Origin: Verrucomicrobiota bacterium
GTDB lineage: Bacteria; Verrucomicrobiota; Verrucomicrobiia; Limisphaerales; UBA1100
Direction: 5' to 3'
Assembly (NCBI GenBank): GCA_028343615.1
Contig: JAOLZA010000004.1
Span: 8,697 to 72,696 of the forward strand
DNA length: 64,000 nucleotides
Shown: positions 19,410-47,028 of the stretch, piece by piece
Layout: each line of letters opens with the position of its first letter
Numbering within the stretch: the stretch's first letter is position 1
Program-made: the position numbers and the translations under genes
Notes under the pieces: model-generated
The model's database searches: none
Seen by the model: only the letters and a program-made list of their open reading frames with translations
What the model was told of the DNA's origin: nothing

Positions 19410-20393
19410 CTAAAAAATTCGTGCCCGAGAAAGGTCTTGTACGTCCACTAAGCCTACCACTTTTTGTTTGGCATCGATAACGACAATTTCGTCAATGCGG
19501 TTTTTCCCTAGCTCGATCACGGCCTCGGCGGCGAGTTTGTCACCTTGAACGGTTACTGGGTTTGCTGTCATGTGATCACGGATGAGGTGGTCGGCGATAT
19601 TGCGGTCTTTCTCATATGCGCGGACAAAGTCGCCATGGGTGAAGATGCCCTGTAACTGGCCTTGCTCATTGGTGGCCACCACGGCACCGGCCTTACATTG
19701 TTTCATGGCGGTGAGGGCGGTAGCCACGGTGTCGCTGGGTTGTACGCGAGCAAGCTGATCGCCTTGGCGCATGATGTCGGTGACGCGGATGAGCAGTTGG
19801 CGGCCGAGGTTGCCACTGGGGTGCAGTTGGGCGAAATCCTCGGCCTTAAAACCGCGGGACTGCAGGAGTACCATGGCCAGCGCGTCGCCGAGGGCGAGCA
19901 TGTTGGTGGAGCTGGAGGTGGGGGCAAGGTTGAGCGGACAGGCTTCGGTTTCCACGCTGATATCGAGTACCACGTCGCTGTTGGCGGCGAGGGTGGAATC
20001 GAGTTTACCAGTGAAAGCGATGATTGATGCGGCACGTTGCTTGAGGTGCGGCAACAGGTTGAGCAGTTCGCTGGTTTCGCCGCTGTAGCTTAGGGCTAGA
20101 ACCGAATCACCTTCGGATACAACACCCAGATCGCCATGCAGTGCATTTTGGCAACTTAGCAGGACAGCTGATGCGCCTGTGCTATTCAGCGTGGCGGCGA
20201 TCTTGGTGGCGATGTTTTCTGACTTGCCGATACCGAGCACGATGATCTTCCTTCGTTCTTCCAATCTTTTTTTCAGAATGTTGATGGCTTGGGTAAACTC
20301 CGGGCCAATCCGGTCTGACAGGCGATGCAATTCGTCAATCTCAGTCCGGAGCACTGCCTTGGCCATAGCCACGAAATCATTACCCATCTTCAT
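19410..20393 (-). CDS. kpsF: Arabinose-5-phosphate isomerase (SIS domain plus CBS pair), KpsF/GutQ family
   Basis: GIGKSENIATKIAATLNSTG (SIS) and a C-terminal CBS pair. The start is set at MKMGNDF (cat at 20391-20393) rather than the ORF-track start at 20468. Confidence 0.85.
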   Translation of the reverse strand: MKMGNDFVAMAKAVLRTEIDELHRLSDRIGPEFTQAINILKKRLEERRKIIVLGIGKSENIATKIAATLNSTGASAVLLSCQNALHGDLGVVSEGDSVLALSYSGETSELLNLLPHLKQRAASIIAFTGKLDSTLAANSDVVLDISVETEACPLNLAPTSSSTNMLALGDALAMVLLQSRGFKAEDFAQLHPSGNLGRQLLIRVTDIMRQGDQLARVQPSDTVATALTAMKQCKAGAVVATNEQGQLQGIFTHGDFVRAYEKDRNIADHLIRDHMTANPVTVQGDKLAAEAVIELGKNRIDEIVVIDAKQKVVGLVDVQDLSRARIF

Positions 20394-20847
20394 TCTCTCC
20401 ACAAACTGCAGGCATTTCAAGGCACTCGTCAACCATATAGCTAGATGCAAACCGCCATTCTGAGTCATGTTTAGACCAATTTTAATCGCTCATAAATGTG
20501 TGAAACTGAGGATCTGGATTTCAAAATGTGTATATCCTTATCTGATTATTTAATTTCTATCTTCGGAGCACTGTGTTCAAGCGAAATAGAATGATTCTGG
20601 CTTGATTCACCTTCGAATGACTGATGTTTTTGTTAAAGATTGTAGGGTTTACCCAACCAGACTTTCCTGAAAAATCTGCGCGATCGATCATTCCGAACTG
20701 TGCGGGATCAGTTCGGTTGTCGAAAATTCTGAACGCAAGATCTCAACGAAGGCTGGCCCGGGTTTGCCAAACTTGATTGGTCTTCCACAGCTCTGGCGAA
20801 TATGCTAGAATAACATCCGTATCAATAAATTCCACGCAATTAGTAGT

Positions 20848-21618
20848 ATGTCGAGTCATGACAATTCAGAGTTATCAGTTAAATCTGGTGGAGTCGCAAA
20901 AGCGCTATACAGATGGCTCCTTGCGCCCGCGATCATCAGGAAGGGGACCCAAGAGATCCCGCTCATTCGTAAGTACTTGGGCAAGGAACCGGGCGTCTTT
21001 GTCGAAGTCGGAGCAAACGACCCGGTAATAGACTCGCAGACATGGGCCCTGGAATCCGAGGGCTGGACCGGTCTTCTTGTGGAGCCGCTCGCGGAGAGGG
21101 CGAGCGAGCTCCGCGAGCAACGCACAGCCATCGTGGAAGAGGTAGCCTGCGGACCACCGGAACTGGACGGAACTGAAGCGGAATTCCATGTCTCCCACCG
21201 GAAGGATGCCCTCTCTTCCCTCAACCCCGCCGGAGCCAAGCCCGGCAACAAGTTTTCTGAAACTCGACATGTGCCTGTTCGTACGCTTGATTCCCTTGTA
21301 AAGAAAGCTGGCCTCAAGCAAATCGATTTCCTTTCGATCGACGTTGAAGGTTTCGAGTCCGAGGTACTCAAGGGAGCCACCCTTGAGCGCCTTCGTCCGC
21401 GTCTTTGCCTGATCGAGGATTGGGCTATTGATTGGACGGTGCACCGGCAGATGACTGCGGCGGGATACAAGCGCGTGCGGCGAACGCAGGTTAATTCGTG
21501 GTACGTTCCTCGGGAAGCTCGGTTTCCCATCTCCATTCTCGGCCACTTCCAGCTATTTAGGAAATATGTTTTGAACGTACCCATCCATCGTATGCGCCAC
21601 CATGCCACCGCCGGATAG
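20848..21618 (+). CDS. FkbM-family SAM-dependent methyltransferase
   Basis: VFVEVGANDPVIDS...GWTGLLVEP and FLSIDVEGFESEVLKG match the FkbM family. The two long antisense ORFs over the same interval have no motifs. Confidence 0.75.
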   Translation: MSSHDNSELSVKSGGVAKALYRWLLAPAIIRKGTQEIPLIRKYLGKEPGVFVEVGANDPVIDSQTWALESEGWTGLLVEPLAERASELREQRTAIVEEVACGPPELDGTEAEFHVSHRKDALSSLNPAGAKPGNKFSETRHVPVRTLDSLVKKAGLKQIDFLSIDVEGFESEVLKGATLERLRPRLCLIEDWAIDWTVHRQMTAAGYKRVRRTQVNSWYVPREARFPISILGHFQLFRKYVLNVPIHRMRHHATAG

Positions 21619-21626
21619 TTTCCAAG

Positions 21627-22805
21627 TTATTGGTTACGCTCGGCAATTATTTCGCACAACTTGTCTCCCGCTTCACCCAAAACCTCTCCCCAACCTCTGC
21701 CGTCCTTTCCTGCAATCCGGACACTGGGATACCAAGGTGTTCGGTCGCGCGTTACTGGCCATTCGCGCCTTAATATATCATCCCGCACCACAATAGTTGG
21801 CACATCGAGCGCACCCGCCACATGGGCCAGCGTGTTGACAATGGTGATCACGCCGTCCAAGGCGGCGACTTGGGCCGCAAAGTCATCCATATTCACCAAC
21901 TGATCAATGGATTCATCGGCGATTATATTTTCATGGCCCAGAATTTTAAGATGAGAGTTCACATTTCCATATTGCAAGGAGACGAATCCTGCTTGGGTCC
22001 GTCTGATGAAATCCGCCCAATCACTCACTTCTGGGGTCTCCTTGGCAAAATGGGAACTGTACCAGCAAATCCCGATTAGTCGCTGGTGTCTCCGGCTACG
22101 CGAATCCGCCCTGTACTTTTGCCTCAATTGCTCGACGAGAGCTTGGTCTGCCACTAGGAAATCACCCGTCTCACCCGGGGGCGGGGCGGTTGGTAAAAAG
22201 TGGGCCAACATCCGATCCGGGGAAATGACATAATCAAAAGCGCCTTCATCGATTGCTTCCGTTGCCGCCTGTACCTTGAGGGTGGGAAAACTGCGGTGAA
22301 ATGTTTTAACTAAGCGCGGCTCCAGCACCGCCATCACTCGGCTGGCTTGGCGGGTAATATGGTGCATTAAGCGTGCCCGCCGGTATCCAACCGCGAGGCC
22401 TTGGCGGTCCGAGGGTTGTAACTGAATCAGCACGTTCTTGCCCTGAAGATCTTCCCCTCTCCATTCGTTGGGAATTGCTTTGGGTTCCCTATTCAATTGG
22501 TTTATCCAGAGCCGCTGGCTATCTTCATAACATCCCAATTGAGAAAGCACAGAAATCATTTCTTTGAGAGTGTGGCGATGCCCACACGCTTCGGCAAGGG
22601 CGGTGACGGTCTTTACCCGTTCCCGCACCAACGCCCAATCGCGGGTCGGGATCGATCGGCGATAGGCGGAATAGGCCAGGCCCAGTTTGGGGTTGCGTGC
22701 GAAACGTGCCACTTGCCGCCGCAGTTGCTTTCCTTTGTCCCGCCGCCACGATATGATATGCCAAGCGTCTTCCGAAACCCAGCGGGGTCGTTTCTTAAAC
22801 AGCAT
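21627..22805 (-). CDS. Uncharacterized protein with a GT9-like/GT-B C-terminal half
   Basis: WRGEDLQGKNVLIQL..., IGICWYSS..., FVSLQYGN and DDFAAQVAALDGVITIVNTLAHVAGALDVPTIVV resemble the heptosyltransferase-like fold seen in TPR-GT proteins. The usual EQGLGD motif is degenerate. Confidence 0.5.
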   Translation of the reverse strand: MLFKKRPRWVSEDAWHIISWRRDKGKQLRRQVARFARNPKLGLAYSAYRRSIPTRDWALVRERVKTVTALAEACGHRHTLKEMISVLSQLGCYEDSQRLWINQLNREPKAIPNEWRGEDLQGKNVLIQLQPSDRQGLAVGYRRARLMHHITRQASRVMAVLEPRLVKTFHRSFPTLKVQAATEAIDEGAFDYVISPDRMLAHFLPTAPPPGETGDFLVADQALVEQLRQKYRADSRSRRHQRLIGICWYSSHFAKETPEVSDWADFIRRTQAGFVSLQYGNVNSHLKILGHENIIADESIDQLVNMDDFAAQVAALDGVITIVNTLAHVAGALDVPTIVVRDDILRREWPVTRDRTPWYPSVRIAGKDGRGWGEVLGEAGDKLCEIIAERNQ

Positions 22806-22828: not shown

Positions 22829-23557
22829 TCAGGGTATTATGAGCTGGCGAACTCGCTCCAGGTCTTCAGGGGTGTCCACGGAAATCGCCCCATCAGCCGG
22901 TGTGGACACCATAGCGACATCGTAACCGTGCTCAATGAAGCGTAGCATCTCGACGCCCTCGGCCAGTTCAACCGGTCCAGGCTGATGGCTTCCGAAGATT
23001 TTCAGTCCTTCCTTGCGAAACGCGTACAGGCCGAGTTGCCTGCGGTGGGTGACTGAGCCGCTCTTGGGAAAAGGAATGGGCAATCGAGAATACGCCAAAG
23101 CCAATTCGCCTATGGTTAGTGAAACTTTGACCGCATTCACATCCACCGCTTCCGAGGGGTGAGAGATCTTCTGGTAGCCATTAGAGGCCATCACGTTGTC
23201 GTTCTGATTCTCGACCATCGCTTTGGTTACCAACTCGATGGCCAGCGGATCGATCATCGGTTCATCGCCTTGGACATTGACGTATATCTCCGCGTCGATG
23301 GAATCCATACACTCCACCAATCGGTCGGTACCCGTGGGATGATCGTCCCGCGTCATCACCACCGGCAACTCCAAGCGTTGGCAGGCTTCCTTAATGCCAG
23401 GGTCGTCCGTCGCAATCCAAGTTTCGTCCAGTATCCCCACCTTGGATGCCTGACGATGCACGTGCCACATCATCGGTTTGCCGTGAATATCCGCCAGCGA
23501 TTTTCCGGGGAAACGCGAGGCTCCGTGTCGGCACGGTATGATTCCCACAACTTTCAT
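22829..23557 (-). CDS. kdsB: 3-deoxy-manno-octulosonate cytidylyltransferase (CMP-Kdo synthetase)
   Basis: IIPCRHGASRFPGKSLADIHGKPMMWHV, ATDDPGI, HPTGTDRLVEC, VNVQGDEPMIDP. The start is at MKVVGI (cat at 23555-23557), giving an ATGA overlap with the HAD gene stop. Confidence 0.8.
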   Translation of the reverse strand: MKVVGIIPCRHGASRFPGKSLADIHGKPMMWHVHRQASKVGILDETWIATDDPGIKEACQRLELPVVMTRDDHPTGTDRLVECMDSIDAEIYVNVQGDEPMIDPLAIELVTKAMVENQNDNVMASNGYQKISHPSEAVDVNAVKVSLTIGELALAYSRLPIPFPKSGSVTHRRQLGLYAFRKEGLKIFGSHQPGPVELAEGVEMLRFIEHGYDVAMVSTPADGAISVDTPEDLERVRQLIIP

Positions 23558-24210
23558 CAATCGCTTGCGTCCTCCTCCGATAACAGCAAATCCGAAATCT
23601 CTGAGAGTATCCAACAATTCTCCTTTGGCTGATCCCCGTATCCCCAAGTGGCGTGAGCGTAGTCGACTCTCGCCCGCTGGGCTGCTTCGAAATCGGAATC
23701 CATATCTCCAATGTATAAGGTTTCTGAGGGATCCACATTTGCTTGTGCCATGGCCATCAGCAAATGATCGGGGGCGGGTTTGCCTCGTAGACGCTCGTTC
23801 GGAGATCGGACACTGTCGAAATCCACCGCCAACATGGCGATAATTGCGTTGGTGCGCATTTTGTCCTTGGAAGTGACGATTCCTATCTTGAATCCCTCCG
23901 AACTCAGCTGGCTCAACACGCGCTGAACATAGGGGTAGAAACTCAGGAGATCCATTCGCTCCATGGACGCGACCCGGAAAGTGGACTCAATAACATGGTC
24001 GGGATCCGCGACTCCAATTCTCTGGAGGATGGTCTGAAACGGGCGACCGATTTCTCTGAAATAAGCTTCAAAATCCACCTCAATCCCGGCTGTTGCCGCC
24101 GCCTTTTTCCAAGCATAACACATATTCTCGCGGGAATTTAACAACACCCCGTCCAAGTCGAACAGAATCAATCGCTTCCCGGCCAGTTTTTCCCTGTTGG
24201 GTTGATTCAT
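23557..24210 (-). CDS. HAD-superfamily phosphatase (phosphoglycolate-phosphatase-like)
   Basis: LILFDLDGVLLNS (DxD nucleophile motif), VTSK, IGDMDSDFEAA. Confidence 0.75.
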   Translation of the reverse strand: MNQPNREKLAGKRLILFDLDGVLLNSRENMCYAWKKAAATAGIEVDFEAYFREIGRPFQTILQRIGVADPDHVIESTFRVASMERMDLLSFYPYVQRVLSQLSSEGFKIGIVTSKDKMRTNAIIAMLAVDFDSVRSPNERLRGKPAPDHLLMAMAQANVDPSETLYIGDMDSDFEAAQRARVDYAHATWGYGDQPKENCWILSEISDLLLSEEDASD

Positions 24211-24567
24211 TTTTTGGATTTAACCGAAGGGCTGTGTCGGCGGCTGGGGTGAAACCTCTTTACTGATTGGAGGGGCAATCAAATACACCGTCAAGCTTAA
24301 AGCTGATCATGACTGATTTGTCTGGCGCTCCCAAAAGAGTGTCGCTGGAGTGGGAGAAAGTAAGGGCGGGGTAAGGAATCGTTGACTTTAGAACTGTAAT
24401 GGTCGAGTGTTTCCCCCCCTCTTGGCTTGAGGATGAGTAAAAAAGGAGCATGACTGTGATTCCAAAAAGTGGGGCAGTTTTTCTGTAAATCCCAAAAACG
24501 GATAGTAAACGGGTCACCATCACACTTGAAAAGACTGGGCTAGCCCCTAAGCAGATATGTTTGAAAG

Positions 24568-25794
24568 ATGCCCCCAAATCTAGATGAGAGGGGTTTGAGT
24601 AATAACAGCAAAAGTCATATGAAAAATTTGAAACGCTATTTGCTGTTAATCAAGTTTTCCACAAAATGGTTTTTCAAGAACGTGGTGAATTTTTTTGTGA
24701 TTATCTATTGCTTAGTAAGGGGGAAGCATTCGCAACGAAGGAGTATATTCTATAGGGAATTGATCTCTGCACAAAACGTCCTATCATATACTAATTCCTA
24801 TTGGAGAATTCTTGATAAGCAATACAGTGCCAACATTGAAATATACAAGGAGTATGTAGAGGAAAATTCTTATGATATTGTGCGCAACCGGCAAGTCGAA
24901 ATGCTTAAGGCACTGGATCGCGTAATACAGAAAAAAAGTTTTGATTCAATCGTGGGAGACGAGAAAAATTCAGAATTAACCTGGGTAATGTCAACCGGGA
25001 GATGTGGGGTAGATGCACTAGACAGATATTTTAAATTGTCTAAGGATCATTTTTCAATACATAGAGAATTCTTTAAAGATGAAATGTATTACGCACACAG
25101 ATCTACGTTGACAACAAAAAGTTATGTGTTTCATAAATTCTTCTATAATAACGCTTCAGATGCGGAAATCGAATCAATAATAAAAACTTTTCTTAGCAAA
25201 AGGATTAAAACCATCAGCCGCAGGAAGGGGAAAAAGTGGGTGTTCTGTGAGCACTGTGACACCGTGTGGCTGCCTATTATTCTAAGAATATTTCCATCCT
25301 CTAAAATTGTTTTTTTATCAAAGAACCCAAAAGAGGTCATAAGGTCATACATGAGTAAGCAGCAATACTCTAGCGCGCAGGAAATGCCCCTCTCTCCATC
25401 GCAGGATAAACTGATGTTCAAAACGCTATTTGGGCTTATGTGCTGGTTTTACACATATATCAACATGTATATTAGCATCCATTGCGAGCTCATTGGAAAT
25501 GATCAACGTATATTAAGTGTCAATGGAGAAGATTTAATGGGGGCTAACTTGGATACATATGAAAAATTAAATAAATTCTTGGGCATGAGTATTTCCCAAA
25601 AACAGTATATGGAACATTTTGGGGGAAGATATAATTCAAAATCTCATAGATCGAAATACTCTGGATTTCCGGAAATCGAGAAATGGCCGGATTCATATCA
25701 GGATTTATTAGAATTATTTTCCACCCAAATAGATGGCAAGATAGATATTAGCCCCCGCGCAAATGCTTGCGCTTTGGCCTCTGGAAATCAGTAG
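24568..25794 (+). CDS. Membrane-anchored putative sulfotransferase
   Basis: N-terminal hydrophobic anchor (YLLLIKFSTKWFFKNVVNFFVIIYCLV). STGRCGVDAL resembles the 5'-PSB loop, and IVFLSKNPKEVIRSYMS resembles the 3'-PB (RxPxDxxxS) region. It lies immediately upstream of the PAPS-synthesis genes. The true start may be MKNLKRY at 24619. Confidence 0.55.
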   Translation: MPPNLDERGLSNNSKSHMKNLKRYLLLIKFSTKWFFKNVVNFFVIIYCLVRGKHSQRRSIFYRELISAQNVLSYTNSYWRILDKQYSANIEIYKEYVEENSYDIVRNRQVEMLKALDRVIQKKSFDSIVGDEKNSELTWVMSTGRCGVDALDRYFKLSKDHFSIHREFFKDEMYYAHRSTLTTKSYVFHKFFYNNASDAEIESIIKTFLSKRIKTISRRKGKKWVFCEHCDTVWLPIILRIFPSSKIVFLSKNPKEVIRSYMSKQQYSSAQEMPLSPSQDKLMFKTLFGLMCWFYTYINMYISIHCELIGNDQRILSVNGEDLMGANLDTYEKLNKFLGMSISQKQYMEHFGGRYNSKSHRSKYSGFPEIEKWPDSYQDLLELFSTQIDGKIDISPRANACALASGNQ

Positions 25795-25806
25795 CTTTAC
25801 TTTGCG

Positions 25807-26343
25807 ATGTTACCAAACCAGTGCAGGATAATTTGGTTCACAGGACTTTCAGGGGCGGGAAAATCTACGTTGGCAGATGAAGTCTTAATGTACCTGACTG
25901 CAAAGGGTGTGAAAAGTAGACTCATTGACGGAGATGATGTGCGCAAAAGCATGAAGGTCCAAAAATTCACAAAATCTGAAATAATTCAGAACAATGAACG
26001 TGTCATTCAGTTATGTAATGATATAAAGGACGAGTTCGAGTATCTGCTCGTAGCTGTAATTGCCCCCTTTAGCCAAACAAGACAAAAGGCAAGGGAAGCT
26101 TTTGGTGGTAATTATGTGGAAATATACGTGAAAGCCAGCATCGAGATCTTGGAAGGCAGGGACACAAAAGGCCTTTATCAGAAAGCTTTAGCCGGAAGAT
26201 TGAACAACCTGATAGGAGTAGACCCAGAAGTCCCATATGAGGAGCCTCGGTTTCCCGAACTTATCGTTGATACGGATAAAGAAACAGTGGGAACATCCGT
26301 GAAAAAAATAGTCAAATTTATCAGTAATAAAACCGAGTTATGA
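25807..26343 (+). CDS. cysC: Adenylyl-sulfate (APS) kinase
   Basis: IWFTGLSGAGKSTLA P-loop and IDGDDVR, typical of CysC. There is a 4-nt overlap with the next gene. Confidence 0.9.
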   Translation: MLPNQCRIIWFTGLSGAGKSTLADEVLMYLTAKGVKSRLIDGDDVRKSMKVQKFTKSEIIQNNERVIQLCNDIKDEFEYLLVAVIAPFSQTRQKAREAFGGNYVEIYVKASIEILEGRDTKGLYQKALAGRLNNLIGVDPEVPYEEPRFPELIVDTDKETVGTSVKKIVKFISNKTEL

Positions 26344-28529
26344 ATAGGGCAAAAATCATTGCGACATTGGGCCCATCGTCCCTTTCAAAAGAGATCGTGG
26401 CACAAATGGATCATTTGGGTGTTGATTTGTTTCGTATCAACCTATCACACACAAACATTAATGATTTAGAAGATATAATTACAATGGTTCAGAGATGGAC
26501 TTCAAAGAAGATTTGTATCGATACCGAGGGGGCTCAACTTAGGGTGGGTCGAATCAACAATAATTCGATGCGCTTCAACTCAGGAGAGCAAATTAGATTT
26601 TGCGGTTCAGAGGGGGTTCATGACGGATCCCTCATTCCGCTTAATGTTCCCAACCCACATGAGATTTTGCGGGTCGGAGACCTATTGAAAATTGATTTTA
26701 ATTCAGTGCTTGTGCAAATAACTGAAATTGATGAACTGCAACCAGTTGCCCGCGTGCTTAAGAAGGGGGCAGTTGGAAATAATAAAGGAATAGGAATTGA
26801 CAGGGCGATTAGTTTGCCAGCGTTCACCGACAAGGACATGTCGGCATTCGAAATAACCAAACAACTAGGGCTGGATACAGTTTTCCTTTCATTTTGTTCT
26901 AGCGGTGGAGATGTGTTGGCCTTGAGGAAAATTTACAATTATCCAATTAGTATTATTTCAAAAGTTGAAAGCCGGTTGTCGATATTCAATTTGGATTCAA
27001 TTTGTGCTGAAAGTGACGCTGTTCTAATTGACCGGGGGGATTTATCAAGAGACGTCCCGCTAACAAAAATACCCTTTGCTCAATCACATATTTTAGATAC
27101 AGCAAAACAATTGGATGTTCCCGTTTATGTGGCAACTAATTTACTTGAGACCATGGTTGAAAAGGCTGAGCCAACTCGAGCAGAGATTCATGATGTTGTG
27201 AGAACTTTGCAAGATGGTGCCGCTGGACTCGTTCTGGCTGCTGAAGCAGCAATTGGATTAAATCCCCCGAACTGTGTTCGGGTCCTATCGAGTCTCATTA
27301 ATGAAGTTGAAAATAAGCCGGGTCAATTTGAGGAGGGTTTTTTATTCGAAAACCCTTCAGGCATCATCATTGCCCCTCATGGTGGACATTTGGTTAATCA
27401 ATATCTTAATGAAGACACCAAATTGAATGTTTCTGACTTAATCACTCTAGACTCAAGTGAAAAAATGAAATCGGACGTGGTTCAGATAGCCAACGGGGTA
27501 TATTCACCTCTAGATAGGTTTATGAATCTCGAAGAGTTGTCTTCGGTTTTAGAGAAAAATCAGTTGCTAGACGGCAATGTGTGGACGATGCCAATAATAT
27601 TGCAGGCAAAAAAGATAGATAAATCAAAAATTATCGGTCAAGAATACATTGCGCTTCGATCTGCGCATGACAATGAGGCTTATGCGGTTATCAAGTCGCC
27701 TAAGGTAGAAGAGATCTCGGATATGAATGGAGTATCTCAAGGCTGGTTTGGAACTGCAGATAAAAGGCATCCTGGAGTCAAAGAGTTTTTTGCGGAAGGC
27801 AATTATATTGTTTCTGGAACGGTTTTATTAATCGAGAAGCCTGCGCCCAGCTCTGCACGTTGTTATGATTTAACACCGAGGCAGACGCGCAGCATTTTTA
27901 GTGACAATGGATGGTCAAACATCGTGGGTTTTCATACACGGAATGTGCCACATCGTGCCCATGAGTATATCCAGTTGAAAGCACTGAACGAATCTAAATC
28001 AGATGCAATTTTTATTTCTCCGGTAACCGGATTAAAGAAGTCAGGTGATTTTTTAGCAATGCCGGTAATCGAGTGTTACAACGCATTGATACGGAGTAAT
28101 TATTATGGTGCATACGGTGCCGTGATAGGTGCCTTTAATACCTATTCAAGGTATTGCGGCCCTAGAGAGGCTGCGTTTACTGCAATTTGCCGGAAAAATT
28201 TCGGCTGTAACCATTTTATTGTGGGCAGAGATCATGCAGGGGTGGGTGATTTTTATGCCTCGGATGCTTCAGTAAAAATTTTTGACTCATTAGATCTCGG
28301 GGTCAACATACTTAACTCCGAACCCGTTTCATGTGTCGATGGTGAATTGGTTTCAGGGGAAGCTGCGGACATCAGTGATGGGAAAACAGTGAAACCAATT
28401 AGCGGATCGGCCGTCCGGGATTGTCTTGTGCGAGGGAAGGAAATCCCTGAATATTTAATGAGAAAGAATATTTCAAGGATACTGTATGACATGATAGAGC
28501 ACGATGCAGATTCTATGTTTCAAGCATAG
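26340..28529 (+). CDS. Fusion protein: N-terminal pyruvate-kinase-like barrel (about aa 1-330) plus C-terminal sulfate adenylyltransferase (ATP sulfurylase)
   Basis: PK-like motifs: KIIATLGPSS, FRINLSH, IDTEGAQLR, ISKVES, IDRGDLS, VATNLLETM, PTRAEIHDVVRTLQDGAAGLVLAAEAA. Sat motifs: FHTRNVPHRAHEYIQ and IVGRDHAGVG. Confidence 0.8.
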   Translation: MNRAKIIATLGPSSLSKEIVAQMDHLGVDLFRINLSHTNINDLEDIITMVQRWTSKKICIDTEGAQLRVGRINNNSMRFNSGEQIRFCGSEGVHDGSLIPLNVPNPHEILRVGDLLKIDFNSVLVQITEIDELQPVARVLKKGAVGNNKGIGIDRAISLPAFTDKDMSAFEITKQLGLDTVFLSFCSSGGDVLALRKIYNYPISIISKVESRLSIFNLDSICAESDAVLIDRGDLSRDVPLTKIPFAQSHILDTAKQLDVPVYVATNLLETMVEKAEPTRAEIHDVVRTLQDGAAGLVLAAEAAIGLNPPNCVRVLSSLINEVENKPGQFEEGFLFENPSGIIIAPHGGHLVNQYLNEDTKLNVSDLITLDSSEKMKSDVVQIANGVYSPLDRFMNLEELSSVLEKNQLLDGNVWTMPIILQAKKIDKSKIIGQEYIALRSAHDNEAYAVIKSPKVEEISDMNGVSQGWFGTADKRHPGVKEFFAEGNYIVSGTVLLIEKPAPSSARCYDLTPRQTRSIFSDNGWSNIVGFHTRNVPHRAHEYIQLKALNESKSDAIFISPVTGLKKSGDFLAMPVIECYNALIRSNYYGAYGAVIGAFNTYSRYCGPREAAFTAICRKNFGCNHFIVGRDHAGVGDFYASDASVKIFDSLDLGVNILNSEPVSCVDGELVSGEAADISDGKTVKPISGSAVRDCLVRGKEIPEYLMRKNISRILYDMIEHDADSMFQA

Positions 28530-28899
28530 ATTTTCCCGCAAAGATATCCCGCTTGCCCAATTTGCTCCGGAGCACTGAGGTTGAGGGTGAATCTGGATTC
28601 TCAATTAAACCCAGATGGCTAGTGTGTGCGTTTTTTAAATAAAACAGAGCACACAAATGGCACTAATCCTCAAGACACAGTTTGCTCTTCCTGTATACAT
28701 TTAGATAGACTTAGAGCCTTCCTATGATAAGCTTGTCTGTTTCTCTGTGAGCACCCCTGTAAACTCTTGAAGGCTTACGGGTTTGCCGTATTAGATTATC
28801 GATTGGGGATGAGCAGATTCTTTTGGGAAAGAAAGGCTCAGATGCCGACAGAGATTTACTCAACCACTCCCGCCTCTTGGATATGATTGTAGTTTCCTG

Positions 28900-29625
28900 T
28901 TAATTGAAATTGCAAAAAGAGACTAACCCATAAATCAGGATGATAAAGGTTATCGCGTTTTGAAATTTACTTTCGTTAACTTTTTTCATTAAGGGTGCAT
29001 TAAAAACTCTATATACAAGAAGGGATAAGGGCGGGAATAAAAGGTAATTTAAATTGAAGGCATCCGGTCGCGCAAAGGCCAAGACGGAGAGCTGCATGAT
29101 ACAGAAAAGACAATATACAAAGGCTATATTTACCCGCATGGAGTTTTTATTTTTATGGATGGCGGCCATGAGGATAGTCAAAGGACCTCCCCCCATGTTC
29201 GACAGGCCGTGGACTATGCCGGTCAGCAAATAGAAATACCTAGGGTTTTGATTGATGAATAAGGATAGGTGTGCCATTGAGGTTTTGAAAGTTCTCAAGA
29301 GGCCTATCATGATCAAAAATGATCCCACGATCTTTGTTACATCCCAAGCCTCTTCATAATTTAATAATATTACCAAACTGACCATCGCCGGGAGTAATGT
29401 GTAAAGGCATGCATTGCCTTTTGCCTCAACTAAATGGTGGTGGCTGTATAACTGGGCCAGCGAAATCGAAAGGGATGCCGGCAGTACAATCCATAATGTT
29501 TCACTGTAAGAATATCCCAGAAAAAGGAGTGTCGGAGTTCCGAAGAGAAGGAGGCCTACTCCGAAAACCGATTGGATCAAGCTCAAAAGTACAATGATGA
29601 GCATTAACGTTAAAACTGCTGACAT
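28900..29625 (-). CDS. TauE/SafE (TSUP, DUF81) family anion permease
   Basis: Polytopic 241-aa protein. The N-terminus LIIVLLSLIQSVFGVGLLLFGTPTLLFLGY and the internal repeat GLSNMGGGPLTILMAA are typical of the TSUP family. Confidence 0.7.
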   Translation of the reverse strand: MSAVLTLMLIIVLLSLIQSVFGVGLLLFGTPTLLFLGYSYSETLWIVLPASLSISLAQLYSHHHLVEAKGNACLYTLLPAMVSLVILLNYEEAWDVTKIVGSFLIMIGLLRTFKTSMAHLSLFINQNPRYFYLLTGIVHGLSNMGGGPLTILMAAIHKNKNSMRVNIAFVYCLFCIMQLSVLAFARPDAFNLNYLLFPPLSLLVYRVFNAPLMKKVNESKFQNAITFIILIYGLVSFCNFN

Positions 29626-29899
29626 GGCAAATAATTCTATGCAAAAATACGAATCCAGATTTAAGTTAGGGCAAAATGGTATATATTCTCCAGAAAGAAC
29701 TTTTCTGCCAACAACTGGGATCAGGATCTTACGGTCCGGACAGATTCTATCTCACCATATTAGTTGATAAAAGGCTAGGGAGGATTTGTGCCGCATGCAA
29801 CTTTCAAACTTGGGCAAAGCGGTATTGGTGCGAGGGAGTTGTCGTTTCCCGAGCATACTCGGAAACCAAGCGGATCTAGTCGATATATCACCGGTCGCG

Positions 29900-30643
29900 C
29901 TAAGGTTTGATGAATTGTCGGCCGGTGTAGTCCAAATACTTCAGGTCCACTTGAATATTTCTTTGGTCAAAAAATTCGTGCAATGCCTTGCGCGCCCCGG
30001 CCCAGTGACCATAATCGTCTATTTGAATTACACCCCCTGATGAAACTTTATCGTACAGTTGTTCAAGGCACACCCAAGTGCTATCGTGCCAATCACCATC
30101 CAGATGGAGCAGAGCAATTTGTTGGATTTCTGAACAGGGCAACGTGTTTTGAAATAATCCCTTAACCATTTGGACGTCATCAAGAATTTGAAATTTTTCA
30201 AACAATCTCCGCACTTCATCATAATCTCCGCGGCAATCCCCTTCAAAGGATTTGGCTAAATCAAAGTCGGGGTCTTCTTGGCTGGGGGCTGGCAATCCTT
30301 CAAACGTGTCATAAACCCAAATTTTTCGGGACGTTTGGATTTGGCGACAGGTCAATCCCATTAAAGCCGCGCAGCCTCCGCGCGCGGTTCCACATTCCAC
30401 CAAATCTCCCTTCACTTTCCGGCGAATCACATCTTGCACGCCACGAAAAATTCCCTTCAGACGGGGGTGGCTCATCATACTGAAAGGGCTGACCTGTTTG
30501 TATAAACGGCCAAATTCACCTGGGGCAACGTGGTCTCGAAAGCCCCCCAATCGATTTAGGAAATCTGCCCAGCGATTACGCTGCTTCTTGCGCTCTGCCT
30601 TGAACAATTCGTGGGAGGTGCCTACTGGAGGTGAATTCGTCAC
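29900..30643 (-). CDS. TylF/macrocin-O-methyltransferase-family sugar O-methyltransferase
   Basis: GDLVECGTARGG and LLHLDGDWHDSTWVCLEQLYDKVSSGGVIQIDDYGHWAGARKALHEF. Confidence 0.8.
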   Translation of the reverse strand: MTNSPPVGTSHELFKAERKKQRNRWADFLNRLGGFRDHVAPGEFGRLYKQVSPFSMMSHPRLKGIFRGVQDVIRRKVKGDLVECGTARGGCAALMGLTCRQIQTSRKIWVYDTFEGLPAPSQEDPDFDLAKSFEGDCRGDYDEVRRLFEKFQILDDVQMVKGLFQNTLPCSEIQQIALLHLDGDWHDSTWVCLEQLYDKVSSGGVIQIDDYGHWAGARKALHEFFDQRNIQVDLKYLDYTGRQFIKP

Positions 30644-30844: not shown

Positions 30845-31522
30845 ATGGGTAGCCGCCCCTGTGCAAATACGTTGAAGCCAGAAATGACCGATGAGGAATT
30901 GTCGGGATTAAGGGAATGGTCTCAATCGGCAAATCTGAATGGCAGACATTTGGAAATTGGTACTGCGGCAGGAGGCACGCTATGCTTCATGATGAATTGC
31001 TTTGAGGCCAATGCGTGCCCGGAATTTACCGTGGTGGACACGATGAGCTATTTTGCCGGTCAGTTAGATATTGTAAAACGCAATTTGTCCCAGAACGGAT
31101 TAGACACGCGGCCGGTCGATTTTCTTGTCATGTCCAGTGATGCGGCGTTTGCTCGTGCGGAGGCGGAGGGCGCGCGTTTTGATTTCATTTTGGTTGATGC
31201 CTCGCACAAGATTCGCCATGTGATGGCGGACTTGCGTTGGTTGCGTCTGCTTAATGTTGGAGGGCTGGCATGTTTTCATGATTACACCGCCAGATTCAAG
31301 GGGGTGCGCTGGCCAATCGATAGGTTCCTGCAACGCAACTCGCAATTTAGTCGGGTGGCGTTGGCGGGTAGCTTGCTCTGTATTCGCAGGGATACGACTT
31401 CTGCACGATCGGAAGTCACGTCATGCGACCGCATATGGGCGTCGCTGTGGTCCCCCATCTTGCAACTTGACTTGAGTTTGCAGAAACGACTCAAGTCAAA
31501 ACGCAACTCCCGTCCGGAATGA
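30845..31522 (+). CDS. Class I SAM-dependent methyltransferase (Methyltransf_24-like)
   Basis: HLEIGTAAGGTL, FDFILVDASH, LLNVGGLACFHDY. Confidence 0.7.
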   Translation: MGSRPCANTLKPEMTDEELSGLREWSQSANLNGRHLEIGTAAGGTLCFMMNCFEANACPEFTVVDTMSYFAGQLDIVKRNLSQNGLDTRPVDFLVMSSDAAFARAEAEGARFDFILVDASHKIRHVMADLRWLRLLNVGGLACFHDYTARFKGVRWPIDRFLQRNSQFSRVALAGSLLCIRRDTTSARSEVTSCDRIWASLWSPILQLDLSLQKRLKSKRNSRPE

Positions 31523-32655
31523 GCACCCAACGGTCATGGCGGATTGTGCACTCGGAGGCTTCTCTTGGCTGGGGAGGGCAAGAGCATCGTGTGTTAGCGG
31601 AGTTAATCGGTTTCCGAAAACGGGGAGCTTGGGTTGCATTGTTGGCTCCTGAGAATAGTGAGATTTTCCAACGTGCGAGGGTCGACGGAATCAAAGTTCA
31701 AATACTCGATACTCGAAAGTTTAGATACCTCTTCACCGCGCTGCGCCTGAAACGGTGGCTGCGGGCAAACAATGTCCAGGTGGTCAACACCCATAGCTCG
31801 CGGGACGGGTATTTGGTGGGTGCGGCTGCCCGATTGGCGCGGGTGCCGTTGTTGATTCGCTCGCGGCATATCGATGTGGACTATCCTAATCCGCGGATCA
31901 GCCGCCATGCCTTTACGACTTTCGCGGATCACGTGTTGACAACCAGCGAGAAAATCACCGGCCACCTCAAGTCCACATTTTGTCTTCAGGACGACCACGT
32001 CTCAACCGTTCCCACCGGGATTGATTTGGCAAGATTTGCGCCCGACGGCCCGAAGGCGGATTTGTTCGAGGAGAGCAACCCGGATCAGTATCCAGTCGTG
32101 GGAATGGTCTCGGTCTTGCGTTCATGGAAAGGGCATTCGGTTTTTCTTGAGGCGGCGAATTTGCTGAAGGCTCAGGGCGTCAAGGCCCGTTATGTCATTG
32201 TTGGGGAAGGCCCGGTACGAGAATCGGTTCTTCAGAAAATTTCCGAATGTAATTTGAGTGCGGAAACCTCACTCACGGGCTATCGGGAGGACATCCCCGA
32301 AGTGCTTCGAGCACTGGATGTACTAGCCATCCCATCGACTGGACATGAGGGTATCCCGCAAATCGGGTTGCAGGCACTGGCTTGTGGAACATCGGTGGTG
32401 GGAAGTGATGCGGGGGGGATTCCCGAGATCATCCAACCCGGGGAAACGGGACGGATTGTAAAGACAAGTGATGCCGGGCAGTTGGCCGATGCCATTGCGA
32501 CTTCACTTATGGACAAGGAGGAATCACTTCGGATGGCGGCCAATGGTCGGCAACTGGTCGAGCACAGTCACGGGGTTGGTCATATGCTGAATCGACTTGA
32601 GAATATTTACGCAGGTTATGTAGGGGTGAGTCAACCAATGAGGATTCTGTCGTAG
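31519..32655 (+). CDS. Glycosyltransferase family 4 (GT-B)
   Basis: WRIVHSEASLGWGGQEHRVL, VSVLRSWKGH, EGIPQIGLQALACGTSVVGSDAGGIPEII. Confidence 0.8.
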   Translation: MSTQRSWRIVHSEASLGWGGQEHRVLAELIGFRKRGAWVALLAPENSEIFQRARVDGIKVQILDTRKFRYLFTALRLKRWLRANNVQVVNTHSSRDGYLVGAAARLARVPLLIRSRHIDVDYPNPRISRHAFTTFADHVLTTSEKITGHLKSTFCLQDDHVSTVPTGIDLARFAPDGPKADLFEESNPDQYPVVGMVSVLRSWKGHSVFLEAANLLKAQGVKARYVIVGEGPVRESVLQKISECNLSAETSLTGYREDIPEVLRALDVLAIPSTGHEGIPQIGLQALACGTSVVGSDAGGIPEIIQPGETGRIVKTSDAGQLADAIATSLMDKEESLRMAANGRQLVEHSHGVGHMLNRLENIYAGYVGVSQPMRILS

Positions 32656-32717: not shown

Positions 32718-33407
32718 ATGAAACAAAATCAGTCTAAAACTCAAGTTTCGGAATTCTACGAGGAGTTCCAGTCTCATGGGAAATATGACTACTTATATGG
32801 CGATGAAGACCGTAAAGAACTTTATGTAGATCTGATTGGAAAGGGCCATCGTATTCTCGAGGTGGGCTGCCGCGCCGGCAACTTAACCCAATACTTCCAC
32901 GAGGGTAATGAGGTGGTGGGCATTGATGTCGATCGCAACGCGCTTAAGGAATTTACCAAGCGCCTAGGCCTGACAGGCCATTGGGTTGATGCGGATTCAG
33001 AGGACTTCCCGTTTGATGACGCGCAATTTGACGTGGTGGTCTTCTCGGAGGTGATGGAGCATTTGCGTTTCCCGAAAAAGGCACTCAAGGAAATTGCCCG
33101 CGTGTTAAAGCCGGATGGGCGGCTGATTGGATCCGTCCCAAATGCGTTTCGGCTCCGCAATCGTCTGAAATTCTTGTTGGGAAAGCCATACGAAGTTGAC
33201 GCCTCCCACTTGAGATCTTATTCGCATACCTTGTTGCATAAAGAATTGTCCTCATGCTTCGAACAAATTGATATTCATCCCATCTCTGGCCACTTGTTAG
33301 GCGGAGGTAGCACGGGCATCCCGGTATACACTTGGCTGCCGTTCCGCATCCGGGCGCTGTTTGCATTGGATCTCGTGTTTGTTGGCGTGGGGAAAAACGT
33401 GAAATAA
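32718..33407 (+). CDS. Class I SAM-dependent methyltransferase (Methyltransf_11-like)
   Basis: ILEVGCRAGNL (motif I), FDVVVFSEVMEHL, LKPDGRLIGSVPN. Confidence 0.75.
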   Translation: MKQNQSKTQVSEFYEEFQSHGKYDYLYGDEDRKELYVDLIGKGHRILEVGCRAGNLTQYFHEGNEVVGIDVDRNALKEFTKRLGLTGHWVDADSEDFPFDDAQFDVVVFSEVMEHLRFPKKALKEIARVLKPDGRLIGSVPNAFRLRNRLKFLLGKPYEVDASHLRSYSHTLLHKELSSCFEQIDIHPISGHLLGGGSTGIPVYTWLPFRIRALFALDLVFVGVGKNVK

Positions 33408-38243: not shown

Positions 38244-38344
38244 GTTGTGCCTCACGATCCGCACAGGCATTATGTTCTCGGCGTGTTTGAAACAGTTCCG
38301 AGACCTGTGCGTCTGACTTGCGGTGGGTGTTGCGATATTTTCTG

Positions 38345-40075: not shown

Positions 40076-40094
40076 AATCGGACTCTAACTCATT

Positions 40095-42155: not shown

Positions 42156-42191
42156 GGTCGCGGCGGTAATTAATTTTCAAGCGTTTCGAAT

Positions 42192-42908: not shown

Positions 42909-42909
42909 T

Positions 42910-44691: not shown

Positions 44692-44789
44692 TGCCGGTGT
44701 TCCGATTCGCTCAGGAGCATCATTATTTTGTAACGCGGATGACATTCCTGCTGTAATAAGTGATAGCGAAGCATTGTGTGCAAATTTTA

Positions 44790-44818: not shown

Positions 44819-44884
44819 GTAAACAGTTTCCGTTGGGATGAAGACAGGGCATCGAGGCATACGTCCGAATTGCAAATTGAGCTA

Positions 44885-47026: not shown

Positions 47027-47028
47027 CC

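Follow-up and report, generated by a model that had tools for sequence, protein, structure and literature searches.

The locus considered here raises the question of what a set of sulfate-activation and sulfotransferase genes does among genes for a surface glycolipid, and whether it arrived there as a unit. The window, a 64,000-nucleotide stretch of DNA from a marine Verrucomicrobiota bacterium, carries these genes at approximately 24.3-29.9 kb. It is likely, with a probability of about 0.65, that they form a sulfation module within an LPS-core-type glycolipid locus. PAPS synthesis coupled with surface-glycan sulfation is a known kind of system, which is built here from two undescribed parts.

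The AT-rich block and its borders

The surrounding locus (14.3-37.1 kb) looks like an LPS core locus. Its first part encodes WaaL-like, GT2, GT4, GalE, GT9 heptosyltransferase-like, KdsD/KpsF and KdsB proteins, followed by methyltransferases, GT4s, a GT2 and, as the last, an ABC exporter with MsbA as its best match. Gene calls and domain matches agree with the initial annotation in placing the block between the KdsB-like and HAD genes on the left and TylF and other methyltransferases, then GT4s, on the right. The features of the region are as follows.

23557..24210, minus strand: HAD-IA hydrolase, left flank, outside the cassette (HAD_2, 103.6 bits)
24211..24618, no strand: intergenic region separating the divergent HAD (-) and sulfotransferase (+) genes, with the left edge of the AT-rich block inside it
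24568..25794, plus strand: sulfotransferase (ST) of a very small subfamily, 408 aa (Sulfotransfer_3 and Sulfotransfer_1, both above the gathering cut-off)
25807..26343, plus strand: APS kinase, CysC (PF01583, 130 bits; TIGR00455, 148.3 against a cut-off of 138.7)
26340..28529, plus strand: PK-Sat fusion (PK barrel, PUA_2 and ATP-sulfurylase; Pfam 193, 115.6 and 197.8 bits)
28530..28899, no strand: non-coding spacer between convergent PK-Sat and TauE, start of the segment missing from TauE-less relatives
28900..29625, minus strand: TauE/TSUP-family permease, accessory (PF01925, 45.3 bits, cut-off 32.6)
29626..29899, no strand: spacer ending at the right border of the cassette; homology to L005, L013, L014 and L017 restarts at 29897-29901
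29900..30643, minus strand: TylF-family sugar O-methyltransferase, right flank, backbone gene outside the cassette (PF05711, 162.6 bits)

The AT-richness of the block, first noticed by eye, was borne out by sliding-window GC and per-gene GC3 calculations, and the composition differs strongly from that of the flanks. GC is 0.410 at 24400-29900 against 0.535 for the remainder of the window, where the lowest 5.5-kb window has 0.488. In 1-kb windows, GC amounts to 0.377-0.435 across 24001-30000, 0.537-0.551 on the left and 0.485 climbing to 0.54-0.57 on the right; in 300-bp windows, the fall begins at about 24100-24400 and recovers at about 29900-30250. Compared to the 40 other genes of the window (mean GC 0.541, sd 0.031), the ST gene has a GC of 0.366 (z -5.6), CysC 0.413 (z -4.1), PK-Sat 0.420 (z -3.9) and TauE 0.409 (z -4.2). 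Their GC3 values (0.41, 0.42, 0.38 and 0.49, respectively) lie below the 0.57-0.70 of the flanks, as do their GC1 and GC2. The HAD gene has the host composition (GC3 0.60) and an unsaturated dS of 0.72 against L005, and its inheritance looks vertical; the dS of TylF against L005 is 0.64, and TylF is also present in L017, L018 and L019.

Both borders can be located by comparison with relatives. Across the left intergenic region, GC drops from 0.51 to 0.40, and homology to relative L015 ends at 24301 and restarts at 24614. The 105-aa ORF at 24260-24577 (-), from which the initial annotation had begun the block, is probably not a gene, and this stretch is not conserved in L015. On the right, homology to L017, which has no cassette at this site, breaks exactly at 29901, the AT-rich border. 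The absence of an integrase or transposase at the borders, claimed earlier, holds for all of the approximately 50 window proteins scanned, among which no such domains were found. The window contains no tRNA and no Rfam match, and no convincing repeats were found at the cassette borders.

The sulfotransferase and its sulfate donor

The 408-aa protein had been presented as a membrane-anchored sulfotransferase candidate. The second part of this description was confirmed by Pfam HMMs (Sulfotransfer_3, 32.1 bits, cut-off 27; Sulfotransfer_1, 29.2 bits, cut-off 22; Stf0 is absent from the Pfam matches) and by the predicted fold. The AF2 model is of moderate quality (pLDDT 67, pTM 0.65), and its top 39 PDB fold matches are PAPS sulfotransferases; a sequence search against the PDB gave no significant match (E 0.14). 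The membrane anchor is not established, as the Kyte-Doolittle mean of the N-terminal helix reaches a maximum of only 1.35, too weakly hydrophobic for such a call. The true start is most likely M18 (24619), as in five of the seven full-length homologues. All eight family members share the motifs LTWVMSTGRCGVDA and FLSKNPxxVIxSY as well as the stretch FCEHxDT, and the motifs are, to judge by sequence, of the PAPS-binding type, with Lys where canonical sulfotransferases have the 3'-phosphate-binding Arg. At E < 1e-30, the family comprises 6 cluster representatives out of 1.84 billion, one cluster member being labelled Limisphaerales, in keeping with an origin in PVC bacteria. This very small subfamily is a new part of an otherwise known kind of system.

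The ST stop codon and the cysC start are separated by 12 bp, and cysC and PK-sat overlap by 4 bp according to the gene calls; ST-cysC-PK-sat is one tightly packed operon. The previous identification of CysC, PK-Sat and the TauE/TSUP permease agrees with the Pfam domain matches. In PK-Sat, the pyruvate-kinase A+B barrel (26343-27275) is followed by PUA_2 (27369-27836) and the ATP-sulfurylase catalytic domain (27864-28487). The Sat half matches solved ATP sulfurylases (E 1.6e-64) and the PK half solved pyruvate kinases (E 4.8e-45), both scoring under the NCBIfam equivalog cut-offs (PK 223.7 against 306.4). An alignment of 120 fusion proteins indicated that the PK catalytic residues are kept: little or no variation occurs at R32, N34, S36, D61, R68, K208 and E210, in the RGDL and ATN motifs or at the conserved residues of PTRAE. 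The fusion is widespread, and CysC is usually a separate neighbour gene directly upstream, including in three unrelated contexts outside the clade; triple PK-Sat-APS-kinase fusions (P0051, P0053 and P0113) are rare. No published description of the PK-Sat fusion was found in the literature, and it is the second new part.

With this operon, the bacterium would make its own sulfate donor. The Sat domain would form APS from sulfate and ATP, and CysC would phosphorylate APS to PAPS. The fused PK barrel probably recycles the ADP released by CysC to ATP using PEP; this would lessen the inhibition by ADP and drive an unfavourable pathway towards its product. PK with PEP serves in vitro to regenerate ATP and to prevent ADP from inhibiting APS kinase (PMC9885120). 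With PAPS as donor, the ST would then sulfate a sugar of the glycan made by the neighbouring glycosyltransferases, most likely on the cytoplasmic side, prior to export via the MsbA-like transporter encoded last in the locus. The set had been described as self-contained, and the sulfotransferase, CysC, PK-Sat and permease are indeed present; it is not fully so because there is no PAP phosphatase (CysQ), and no pyrophosphatase was assigned in the unit either.

Sulfate activation may also be an assimilatory step. In some bacteria, a Sat-type ATP sulfurylase with APS kinase can feed PAPS reductase, so cysC and PK-sat might be housekeeping genes that happen to lie inside an LPS locus beside an incidental ST; a CysC-PK-Sat pair in an Ignavibacteria MAG, without a sulfotransferase within 8 kb, is consistent with such a role. 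This explanation is nevertheless highly improbable. Packed in an operon with the ST, both genes are co-inherited with it in all 10 related loci long enough to show them. The same order, Sulfotransfer_1-CysC-PK-Sat, recurs in a Marinimicrobia-labelled glycan cluster adjoining NeuB and CMP-sugar genes. The unit was not found at the site in L017, L018 and L019, which would be unusual for an essential assimilation gene, and no cysH, sulfite reductase or cysteine synthase was detected among the approximately 50 window proteins scanned. In L011, CysC-PK-Sat is flanked on both sides by sulfotransferase-like genes.

It is harder to name the acceptor. A real sulfation system could act on an O-antigen, a capsule-like or secreted polysaccharide, a nonulosonic-acid glycan, a lipid or a small molecule in place of the LPS core, and we consider this a possibility of some weight, if a minor one. 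The window contains O-antigen-type initiation genes (WecA-like and PglF/WbpM-like, at 33-2743) besides the WaaL-like ligase, and in a nonulosonic-acid cluster, the gene of P0007, the most distant ST family member (50% identity), shares 4 bp with NeuB. Among the top fold matches are tyrosylprotein, small-molecule and polyketide sulfotransferases, and the substrate class is therefore not fixed by fold alone. Against these acceptors, the ST lies among glycosyltransferases and sugar methyltransferases in every context, an MsbA-like exporter gene is found in four loci (the window, L005, L010 and L001), and no Wzx/Wzy polymerase, Wza or KpsMT adjoins the ST in the window. LPS-core sulfation is the preferred reading.

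Distribution and origin of the cassette

At least seven lineages of related marine Verrucomicrobiota have the unit, with 60-90% amino-acid identity. It is situated between HAD and TylF in the window, L005, L013 and L014/15, and between MT24 and GT4b in L008, L009 and L010. Three loci that share the TylF-MT24-GT4b backbone, L017 (a close relative, contig of 3.7 kb) and the distant L018 and L019, showed no cassette. Its only constant neighbours are TylF, MT24 and GT4-type genes; L009 has no KdsB/HAD/FkbM block within 13.7 kb, and the ST is not always alongside that block. It seems that the four genes are a discrete, compositionally foreign accessory unit inserted at two intergenic sites of one backbone. 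Having no mobility genes, the unit presumably spreads through recombination, a frequent route for modules of surface-polysaccharide loci. A discrete movable unit at two sites supports the term "cassette" better than composition alone.

The permease, a protein with several hydrophobic segments, is a dispensable part of the unit. Its orthologues in L008, L009 and L010 (54-57% identity) keep position and orientation. The comparison of synteny proposed earlier did reveal a pattern of presence and absence. TauE is missing from the closest relatives, L005, L013 and L014/15. In L005, L013 and L014, 95-373 bp stand in place of the segment between about 28530-28551 and 29896-29899, and the spacer at 28530..28899 had no match in any related locus compared. 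The convergent permease may be an optional helper whose substrate would be a sulfur anion, either inorganic or organic, and which might import sulfate.

Surface-polysaccharide loci commonly have a low GC. The composition might reflect the usual AT-richness of such loci, amino-acid make-up or selection on expression, the unit having passed down vertically with losses in some lineages. Several observations fit this: against L013 and L014/15, cassette and flanks show much the same divergence (79-89% nucleotide identity); cassette GC is below the flanks in all carriers, even with synonymous sites saturated; neither mobility genes nor repeats were found; and in L005 and L008, cassette GC3 (0.50-0.63) is near host values while GC1 and GC2 remain low, so much of the signal is protein composition. 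Vertical descent throughout is, however, unlikely. Two insertion sites and the sharp L017 break at the compositional border are hard to obtain by loss alone. Between the window and L005, synonymous sites of the cassette are saturated (pS 0.70-0.87), whereas those of most flanking genes are not (dS 0.6-1.3). The locus is a mosaic, with the GT4b of L010 88% identical (dS 0.40) beside saturated genes. The two outgroup PK-Sat loci with readable DNA (L011, GC 0.29; L012, 0.36) and the outgroup ST homologue (L001) lie in DNA with GC of 0.29-0.36. The L013 and L014/15 subgroup has inherited the unit vertically, and the transfer is an old one. The earlier idea of a horizontally acquired cassette stands as regards a discrete unit with two insertion sites that was not found in L017, L018 and L019, but not as a recent private gain, since at least seven lineages carry it.

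Comparison with known systems

The literature already describes sulfated glycans of PVC bacteria (Pontiella) and polysaccharide loci that contain PAPS genes and a sulfotransferase (Cobetia; S. meliloti LpsS). The view of PVC bacteria as mainly degraders of sulfated glycans is outdated, as Pontiella makes sulfated exopolymers and encodes sulfotransferases (PMC7356697). Pontiella (Kiritimatiellae, Verrucomicrobiota) belongs to the same phylum as the window source; it makes sulfated glycans, and its PF13469 sulfotransferases are encoded in one cluster with GT2/GT4 genes and methyltransferases (PMC7356697). Its product, in contrast, is a secreted, mainly N-sulfated glycosaminoglycan-like exopolymer, and the cluster as drawn has no linked PAPS genes (PMC7356697). 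Pontiella is an anaerobic isolate of a class other than that of the window source.

The capsular cluster of the marine Gram-negative bacterium Cobetia marina KMM 1449 is likewise a surface-polysaccharide locus with PAPS genes, a sulfate permease and a sulfotransferase, and its sulfated product was demonstrated by NMR (PMC11766843). The logic leading from permease to sulfate activation and transfer to a glycan is shared. Cobetia employs a GTPase-coupled CysD/CysNC sulfurylase and includes CysQ, whereas the window has a Sat-type enzyme fused to a PK barrel and a separate CysC, without CysQ. In Cobetia, the locus is of the group-III capsule type and relies on KpsMT for export, unlike the LPS-core-like locus with its MsbA-like exporter and TSUP-type permease.

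In Sinorhizobium meliloti, NodPQ and NodH serve Nod-factor sulfation, NodPQ being of the CysDN/CysC type. As proposed for the window, dedicated sulfate-activation genes, there duplicated, serve glycan sulfation and not assimilation. S. meliloti LpsS is, like the module proposed here, a bacterial sulfotransferase modifying LPS with PAPS; it is annotated as Stf0-family (PMC12445080), in contrast to the Sulfotransfer_3 and Sulfotransfer_1 matches of the window ST. Unlike the latter, lpsS lies outside any PAPS operon.

Metazoan PAPSS1/2 and fungal and bacterial Sat-APS-kinase fusions (PMC3734648; PDB 2gks, 1m8p) resemble PK-Sat in fusing activation steps and channelling an unfavourable pathway, and their sulfurylases are homologous to its Sat half. 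Their fusion partner is an APS kinase or an APS-kinase-like regulatory domain, whereas in PK-Sat it is the PK A+B barrel. Over their full length, the N-terminal 330 residues of PK-Sat can be aligned with the catalytic A and B domains of canonical pyruvate kinase (PDB 7ueh, 5wrp, 1pky). The barrel is without the C-terminal regulatory and tetramerisation domain, and the canonical motif SGE(S/T)A is AAEAA in PK-Sat, which keeps the substrate-, metal- and nucleotide-binding residues of the canonical enzyme.

The glycan locus and its AT-rich block

The region between 14.3 and 37.1 kb of the window contains, in order, genes for a WaaL-like O-antigen ligase, GT2, GT4, GalE, a GT9 heptosyltransferase-like protein, KdsD/KpsF, an FkbM methyltransferase, a 392-aa protein, KdsB and a HAD hydrolase, then the cassette, and beyond it TylF, two further methyltransferases, two GT4s, GT2 and an ABC exporter. 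The scores of KdsB (NF003952, 234.5 against a subfamily cut-off of 193) and KpsF/KdsD (287 against 203.7) exceed their cut-offs; those of the heptosyltransferase-III-like GT9 (133.5 against 170.2) and of the exporter with its best match, MsbA (430 against 602), are lower than required. A Wzy_C domain was found in the locus (60.9 bits), and neither lipid A genes nor KdsA were found within the window. Given this gene content, from the WaaL-like to the MsbA-like protein, “LPS core” seems a reasonable description of the locus, with several scores lying below equivalog cut-offs. The features of the cassette are as follows.

24260-24577, minus strand: 105-aa ORF, probably not a gene
24568-25794, plus strand: sulfotransferase (ST), 408 aa; Sulfotransfer_3 PF13469, 32.1 bits (cut-off 27); Sulfotransfer_1 PF00685, 29.2 bits (cut-off 22)
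25807-26343, plus strand: APS kinase CysC; TIGR00455, 148.3 bits (cut-off 138.7); P-loop GLSGAGKST
26340-28529, plus strand: PK-Sat, 729 aa; pyruvate kinase (PK) barrel, 193 bits; PUA_2 PF14306, 115.6 bits; ATP sulfurylase PF01747, 197.8 bits
28900-29625, minus strand: TauE/TSUP permease; PF01925, 45.3 bits (cut-off 32.6)

The ST, cysC and PK-sat genes form a compact operon: 12 bp separate the first two, and the last two overlap by 4 bp. The 105-aa ORF, which supplied the left border in the initial annotation, is not conserved in sequence in the related locus L015. The reading of the whole as a glycan-sulfation module was correct.

The AT-richness claimed for the block was borne out by computation. 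The GC content is 0.377-0.435 across 24001-30000 in 1-kb windows, compared with 0.537-0.551 in the left flank, and returns to 0.54-0.57 by 31-34 kb. In 300-bp windows, the fall starts in the intergenic region between the HAD and sulfotransferase genes (about 24100-24400) and ends at about 29900-30250. The region 24400-29900 has a GC content of 0.410 versus 0.535 for the remaining window, where the lowest 5.5-kb stretch has 0.488. The four cassette genes deviate by z of -3.9 to -5.6 from the 40 other genes (mean 0.541, sd 0.031). Their GC3 is 0.38-0.49 (0.57-0.70 in the flanks), and GC1 and GC2 are depressed too, which indicates that the cassette proteins themselves are encoded in AT-rich codons.

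Several neighbouring genes deserve mention. The 392-aa protein (21627-22805, minus strand) is conserved together with KdsB and HAD at 67-79% identity in the related loci L005 and L008, has a weaker counterpart in L018 (37%), and has no match in Pfam, NCBIfam or PDB. A likeness to GT9 or TPR-linked glycosyltransferases was not supported, as BLASTP against the GT9 of the window gave E 0.64, with no PDB or Pfam match. For the HAD hydrolase (23557-24210, minus strand), the top NCBIfam matches, none of which comes near its cut-off, include the pyrophosphatase PpaX and a HAD-type inorganic diphosphatase; the protein may dephosphorylate sugar phosphates or serve as a helper that removes PPi. A CTP_transf_3 and HAD_2 pair lies near CysC-PK-Sat in a cluster labelled Marinimicrobia, and both genes are near the module in the outgroup locus L011. 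A local GC dip (0.468 at 20001-21000) surrounds the 379-bp intergenic region between KdsD (minus strand) and FkbM (plus strand), and the alignment with L005 is interrupted there, at 20252-20844. Directly after the MsbA-like exporter lies a gene for a eukaryotic-type Ser/Thr protein kinase (37150-38031, minus strand), followed at 38318-54533 by two consecutive sets of OEP, HlyD-like, ABC and MacB-FtsX permease genes resembling tripartite efflux systems, one of which, for an 809-aa HlyD-like protein (44597-47026), has a lower GC content of 0.475. Two large minus-strand ORFs, 3906-7664 (1252 aa) and 10596-12356 (586 aa), match no Pfam family at E <= 1e-5.

The sulfotransferase and the PK-Sat/CysC pair

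An HMM comparison agreed with the proposed sulfotransferase identity of the 408-aa protein, placing it above the gathering thresholds of both Sulfotransfer_1 and Sulfotransfer_3, with the matches confined to the C-terminal half. A profile search against PDB by sequence gave nothing significant, the best match being SULT1C2 (E 0.14) over the 3'-phosphate-binding region. The AlphaFold2 model, with five core strands, is of moderate quality (pLDDT 67, pTM 0.65). In a Foldseek comparison with PDB, ranks 1-39 were all PAPS-dependent sulfotransferases (E from 3e-4, probability 1.0), including TPST1/2, SULTs, Stf9, Stf1, CurM-ST, NDST and 3-OST; the target TM-scores against the top sulfotransferases were 0.38-0.55, and the strength of this whole result is limited by the moderate quality of the model. 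A word-indexed search of 5.8 billion proteins with the single sequence found eight relatives only, and a second such search with a profile returned the same eight proteins. Distant relatives became visible when 1.84 billion cluster representatives were scanned in full with HMMER: six had E values below 1e-30 and 230 below 1e-3, and the more distant matches (P0130-P0143) are themselves Sulfotransfer_3 or Sulfotransfer_1 proteins. On this evidence, the protein is a predicted sulfotransferase whose subfamily is very small.

The likely start is 24619 (M18), the position at which five out of seven homologues of full length begin. The stretches conserved in the family are LTWVMSTGRCGVDA, located after the first core strand, FLSKNPxxVIxSY and FCEHxDT. 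In by-eye readings of the alignments, the loop STGRCGVDA after that strand is invariant, and FLSKNPxxVIxSY aligns with ARNPKDxxVSY of SULT1C2, with Ser kept and Lys replacing Arg. Motif resemblance suggests LTWVMSTGRCGVDA as a candidate 5'-phosphosulfate loop, FLSKNPxxVIxSY as a candidate 3'-phosphate motif with Lys for the usual Arg, and the His of FCEHxDT as a candidate catalytic residue. The N-terminal 120 or so residues are helical. The initial annotation described the enzyme as membrane-anchored, which was not confirmed: the Kyte-Doolittle maximum of the first helix in a 19-residue scan is 1.35, under the usual threshold, so that an N-terminal anchor is at most possible.

The Sat half of PK-Sat, comprising the PUA_2 and ATP-sulfurylase domains, has as its best solved match the ATP sulfurylase 8a8d (E 1.6e-64). 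It carries the HxxH and GRD motifs of this enzyme type, as TRNVPHRAHE and VGRDHAG, which are mostly kept across the fusion family, and scores under the NCBIfam cut-offs (TIGR00339, 258 versus 322.95; NF003166, 311.7 versus 387). By these comparisons, it is a divergent branch of the Sat-type ATP sulfurylases. The PK half consists of the barrel only (PF00224, residues 2-312), the C-terminal regulatory domain PK_C being absent in the Pfam scan. It scores under the equivalog cut-off (TIGR01064, 223.7 versus 306.4) and matches genuine pyruvate kinases among solved structures (E 4.8e-45). Two alignments, of 120 and 10 fusion proteins, demonstrated that R32, N34, S36, H37, D61, R68, K149, K208, E210, D234 (RGDL) and T266 are invariant or nearly so, as are the B-domain NKG, ATN and the conserved residues of PTRAE. 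The residues were mapped onto pyruvate kinase partly by HMMER alignment to 7ueh, and we take them, partly from the known motifs of this kinase, to be the PEP-, K+/Mg2+- and nucleotide-binding positions of that enzyme.

All of the best 120 matches listed (P0009-P0128), which are mostly metagenomic, have the same three-domain architecture, to which three (P0051, P0053 and P0113) add a C-terminal APS-kinase domain. The few named sources among them carry Marinimicrobia or Ignavibacteria labels, and automatic annotations call these proteins “pyruvate kinase” or “sulfate adenylyltransferase”. An exact look-up of the window PK-Sat found no contig, and the gene context was drawn from homologues instead. 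In all three outgroup loci examined, cysC is directly upstream of PK-Sat, and sulfotransferase genes occur in two of them. The Marinimicrobia-labelled cluster has the order Sulfotransfer_1-CysC-PK-Sat within a NeuB and CMP-sugar cluster, and L011 has sulfotransferase-like genes on both sides of CysC-PK-Sat; in an Ignavibacteria MAG, the pair adjoins lpxK without a sulfotransferase. No paper on a fusion of pyruvate kinase with ATP sulfurylase was found in the literature searched, which was mostly without subscription journals. The fusion is widespread and, as far as this literature shows, undescribed, and the PK-Sat/CysC pair is rated here as the part of the module most worth following up.

It may be that PK-Sat and CysC together form an undescribed PEP-driven PAPS synthase, in which an active PK barrel recycles ADP and couples sulfate activation to PEP hydrolysis. 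In the mechanism favoured here, the barrel would regenerate ATP from the ADP released by APS kinase; this recycling would also remove a known inhibitor and tie PAPS synthesis to PEP. Coupled PK/PEP systems regenerate ATP from the ADP of APS kinase in vitro (PMC9885120). We put the probability of a PEP-driven PAPS synthase a little under one half. Since PAPS occurs in the cytoplasm and a flippase-type exporter closes the locus, the simplest model would have the lipid-linked glycan sulfated at the inner membrane face, prior to export.

Distribution and origin of the cassette

Among genome records, the nearest comes from an uncultured Verrucomicrobiota MAG (locus L007, which is identical to L005). 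Its locus is collinear with 14.0-37.0 kb of the window at about 76% nucleotide identity, including the cassette and lacking TauE. Other carriers are L013 (89% nucleotide identity to the window), L014/15/16 (79-82%), L006, L008 (marine metagenome contig ERR599097), L009 and L010, and one member of a sulfotransferase cluster is labelled Limisphaerales (an order of Verrucomicrobiota, PVC group). HAD and TylF flank the cassette in the window, L005, L013 and L014/15, and the methyltransferase MT24 and the glycosyltransferase GT4b flank it in L008, L009 and L010; these are two arrangements of one backbone (HAD, TylF, MT24, GT4b). All 80 loci returned by a metagenome scan with TylF lack the cassette. 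The TylF-MT24-GT4b backbone is found in three of them, L017 (TylF 87% identical), L018 and L019. The homology between L017 and the window stops exactly at the TylF stop, 29901, beyond which L017 has SAM-methyltransferase genes common to L018 and L019; L017 is only 3.7 kb long, and the absence applies to that stretch of its locus. A scan of genome contigs with the 392-aa protein returned a single locus, identical to L005, and, being based on N-terminal patterns only, is uninformative on presence or absence.

The PF01925 match of the TauE permease covers residues 7-234 and profile positions 1-235 of 237, and the protein has several hydrophobic segments; an NCBIfam scan of it gave no match. Orthologues with 54-57% identity are present in L008, L009 and L010 with position and orientation kept. 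No TauE remnant was detectable in L005, L013 or L014, and comparison of the TauE spacers with all fetched loci gave nothing informative. TauE is an optional member of the unit.

In the comparison of the window with L005, dS is 0.6-1.3 for most flanking genes and the cassette is saturated (pS 0.70-0.87), with cassette GC3 of 0.38-0.43 in the window versus 0.50-0.62 in L005. The lower GC3 of the window had suggested a recent replacement from a lower-GC relative. This explanation was dropped, since the low GC is also present in L013 and L014/15, whose cassettes and flanks have diverged equally from those of the window. Elsewhere in the locus, GT4b of L010 (4487-5599) is 88% identical in amino acids to its counterpart in the window (31519-32655), with dS 0.40, and its neighbours on both sides show synonymous saturation and about 50-76% amino acid identity, which points to recent recombination between lineages. 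The Methyltransf_11 gene at 32718-33407 has a GC content of 0.49, below that of its neighbours, and is synonymously saturated relative to L005. Its counterparts in L019, of high GC, and L010, of low GC, are nevertheless 76% identical to it in amino acids, and it is possibly a further module subject to exchange.

The DNA around the most distant ST homologue, like that of the outgroup PK-Sat loci for which sequence was readable, has a GC content of 0.29-0.36. This most distant member of the subfamily (L001, 10001-11167; 50% identity) overlaps NeuB by 4 bp. The host of L001-L004 is of low GC (0.32 in the locus, about 0.23 in the ST gene), and the cluster includes LuxC/LuxE/AMP-ligase genes, an MptE-like gene, FkbM methyltransferases, a CMP-sugar synthetase and an MsbA-like exporter, with neither cysC nor sat within 10 kb.

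In agreement with the initial annotation, no mobility domains, such as an integrase or transposase, were detected in the proteins neighbouring the cassette. A tRNA scan of the window and borders found none, border repeats were short and at chance level, and promoter/terminator and Rfam scans of the borders were uninformative. The cassette resembles a classical genomic island or mobile element in composition and variable presence, and not in integrase, tRNA or direct repeats. Neither a PK-Sat fusion nor the cassette was found in the viral contigs searched as a possible vehicle. One of them (L098, an IMG/VR contig of 409 kb) encodes CysC beside a Sat-type ATP sulfurylase unfused to PK at 7467-9125, and another (L097) has at 7998-8975, amid radical-SAM genes, a PK barrel of 325 aa that stands alone and shares 43% identity with the PK half of the fusion. 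The claim of a horizontally acquired cassette stands as far as a discrete accessory unit, probably of low-GC origin, is concerned, with two insertion sites and loci L017-L019 in which it was not found. Its history is more complex than one acquisition: the unit is old within the clade, and recombination within a glycan locus of mosaic make-up has presumably relocated or removed it.

Significance and comparison with known sulfation systems

Two ways of pulling the unfavourable sulfurylase reaction are GTP hydrolysis (CysDN) and fusion to APS kinase (PAPSS); a PEP-driven PAPS synthase, if true, would be a third. PK-Sat may be the natural counterpart of the PK/PEP ATP regeneration used in enzymatic PAPS assays and synthesis, and if so would be useful for biocatalytic sulfation. 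The module offers two enzymes without characterised relatives, this fusion and the ST subfamily, of which very few members exist among billions of sequences.

If the reading of PK-Sat is general, dedicated glycan sulfation would be common and overlooked in ocean bacteria, including on LPS-type glycolipids of Verrucomicrobiota, and these bacteria would be a source of sulfated organic matter. Sulfate esters make the cell surface strongly anionic, and surface sulfate can alter recognition by phages and grazers, the binding of cations and how readily released glycans are degraded. Research on marine Verrucomicrobiota treats them as consumers of sulfated polysaccharides from algae; a module for sulfation of their own LPS-type glycolipid, lineage-wide yet exchangeable, would make them producers too and give the marine pool of sulfated carbohydrates an additional, bacterial source.

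The argument for novelty, that PVC bacteria are known mainly for degrading sulfated glycans and not for producing them, is out of date, as sulfated glycans are reported to be produced by Pontiella, a member of Verrucomicrobiota (PMC7356697). Polysaccharide loci equipped with PAPS genes, a sulfate permease and a sulfotransferase of their own are on record, such as the capsule locus of Cobetia marina (PMC11766843), and in Sinorhizobium meliloti LPS is sulfated by a dedicated sulfotransferase, LpsS, annotated as Stf0-family (PMC12445080). In view of these precedents, this kind of system is already known. The present unit differs in its sulfurylase, which is Sat-type and fused to a PK barrel in place of CysDN, in having a separate CysC, no CysQ and a TSUP permease, in its locus, which is LPS-core-type and not capsule-type as in Cobetia, and in its sulfotransferase subfamily with almost no relatives. 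The combination of PAPS genes and a sulfotransferase in a polysaccharide locus is a known design, which is extended here and not overturned.
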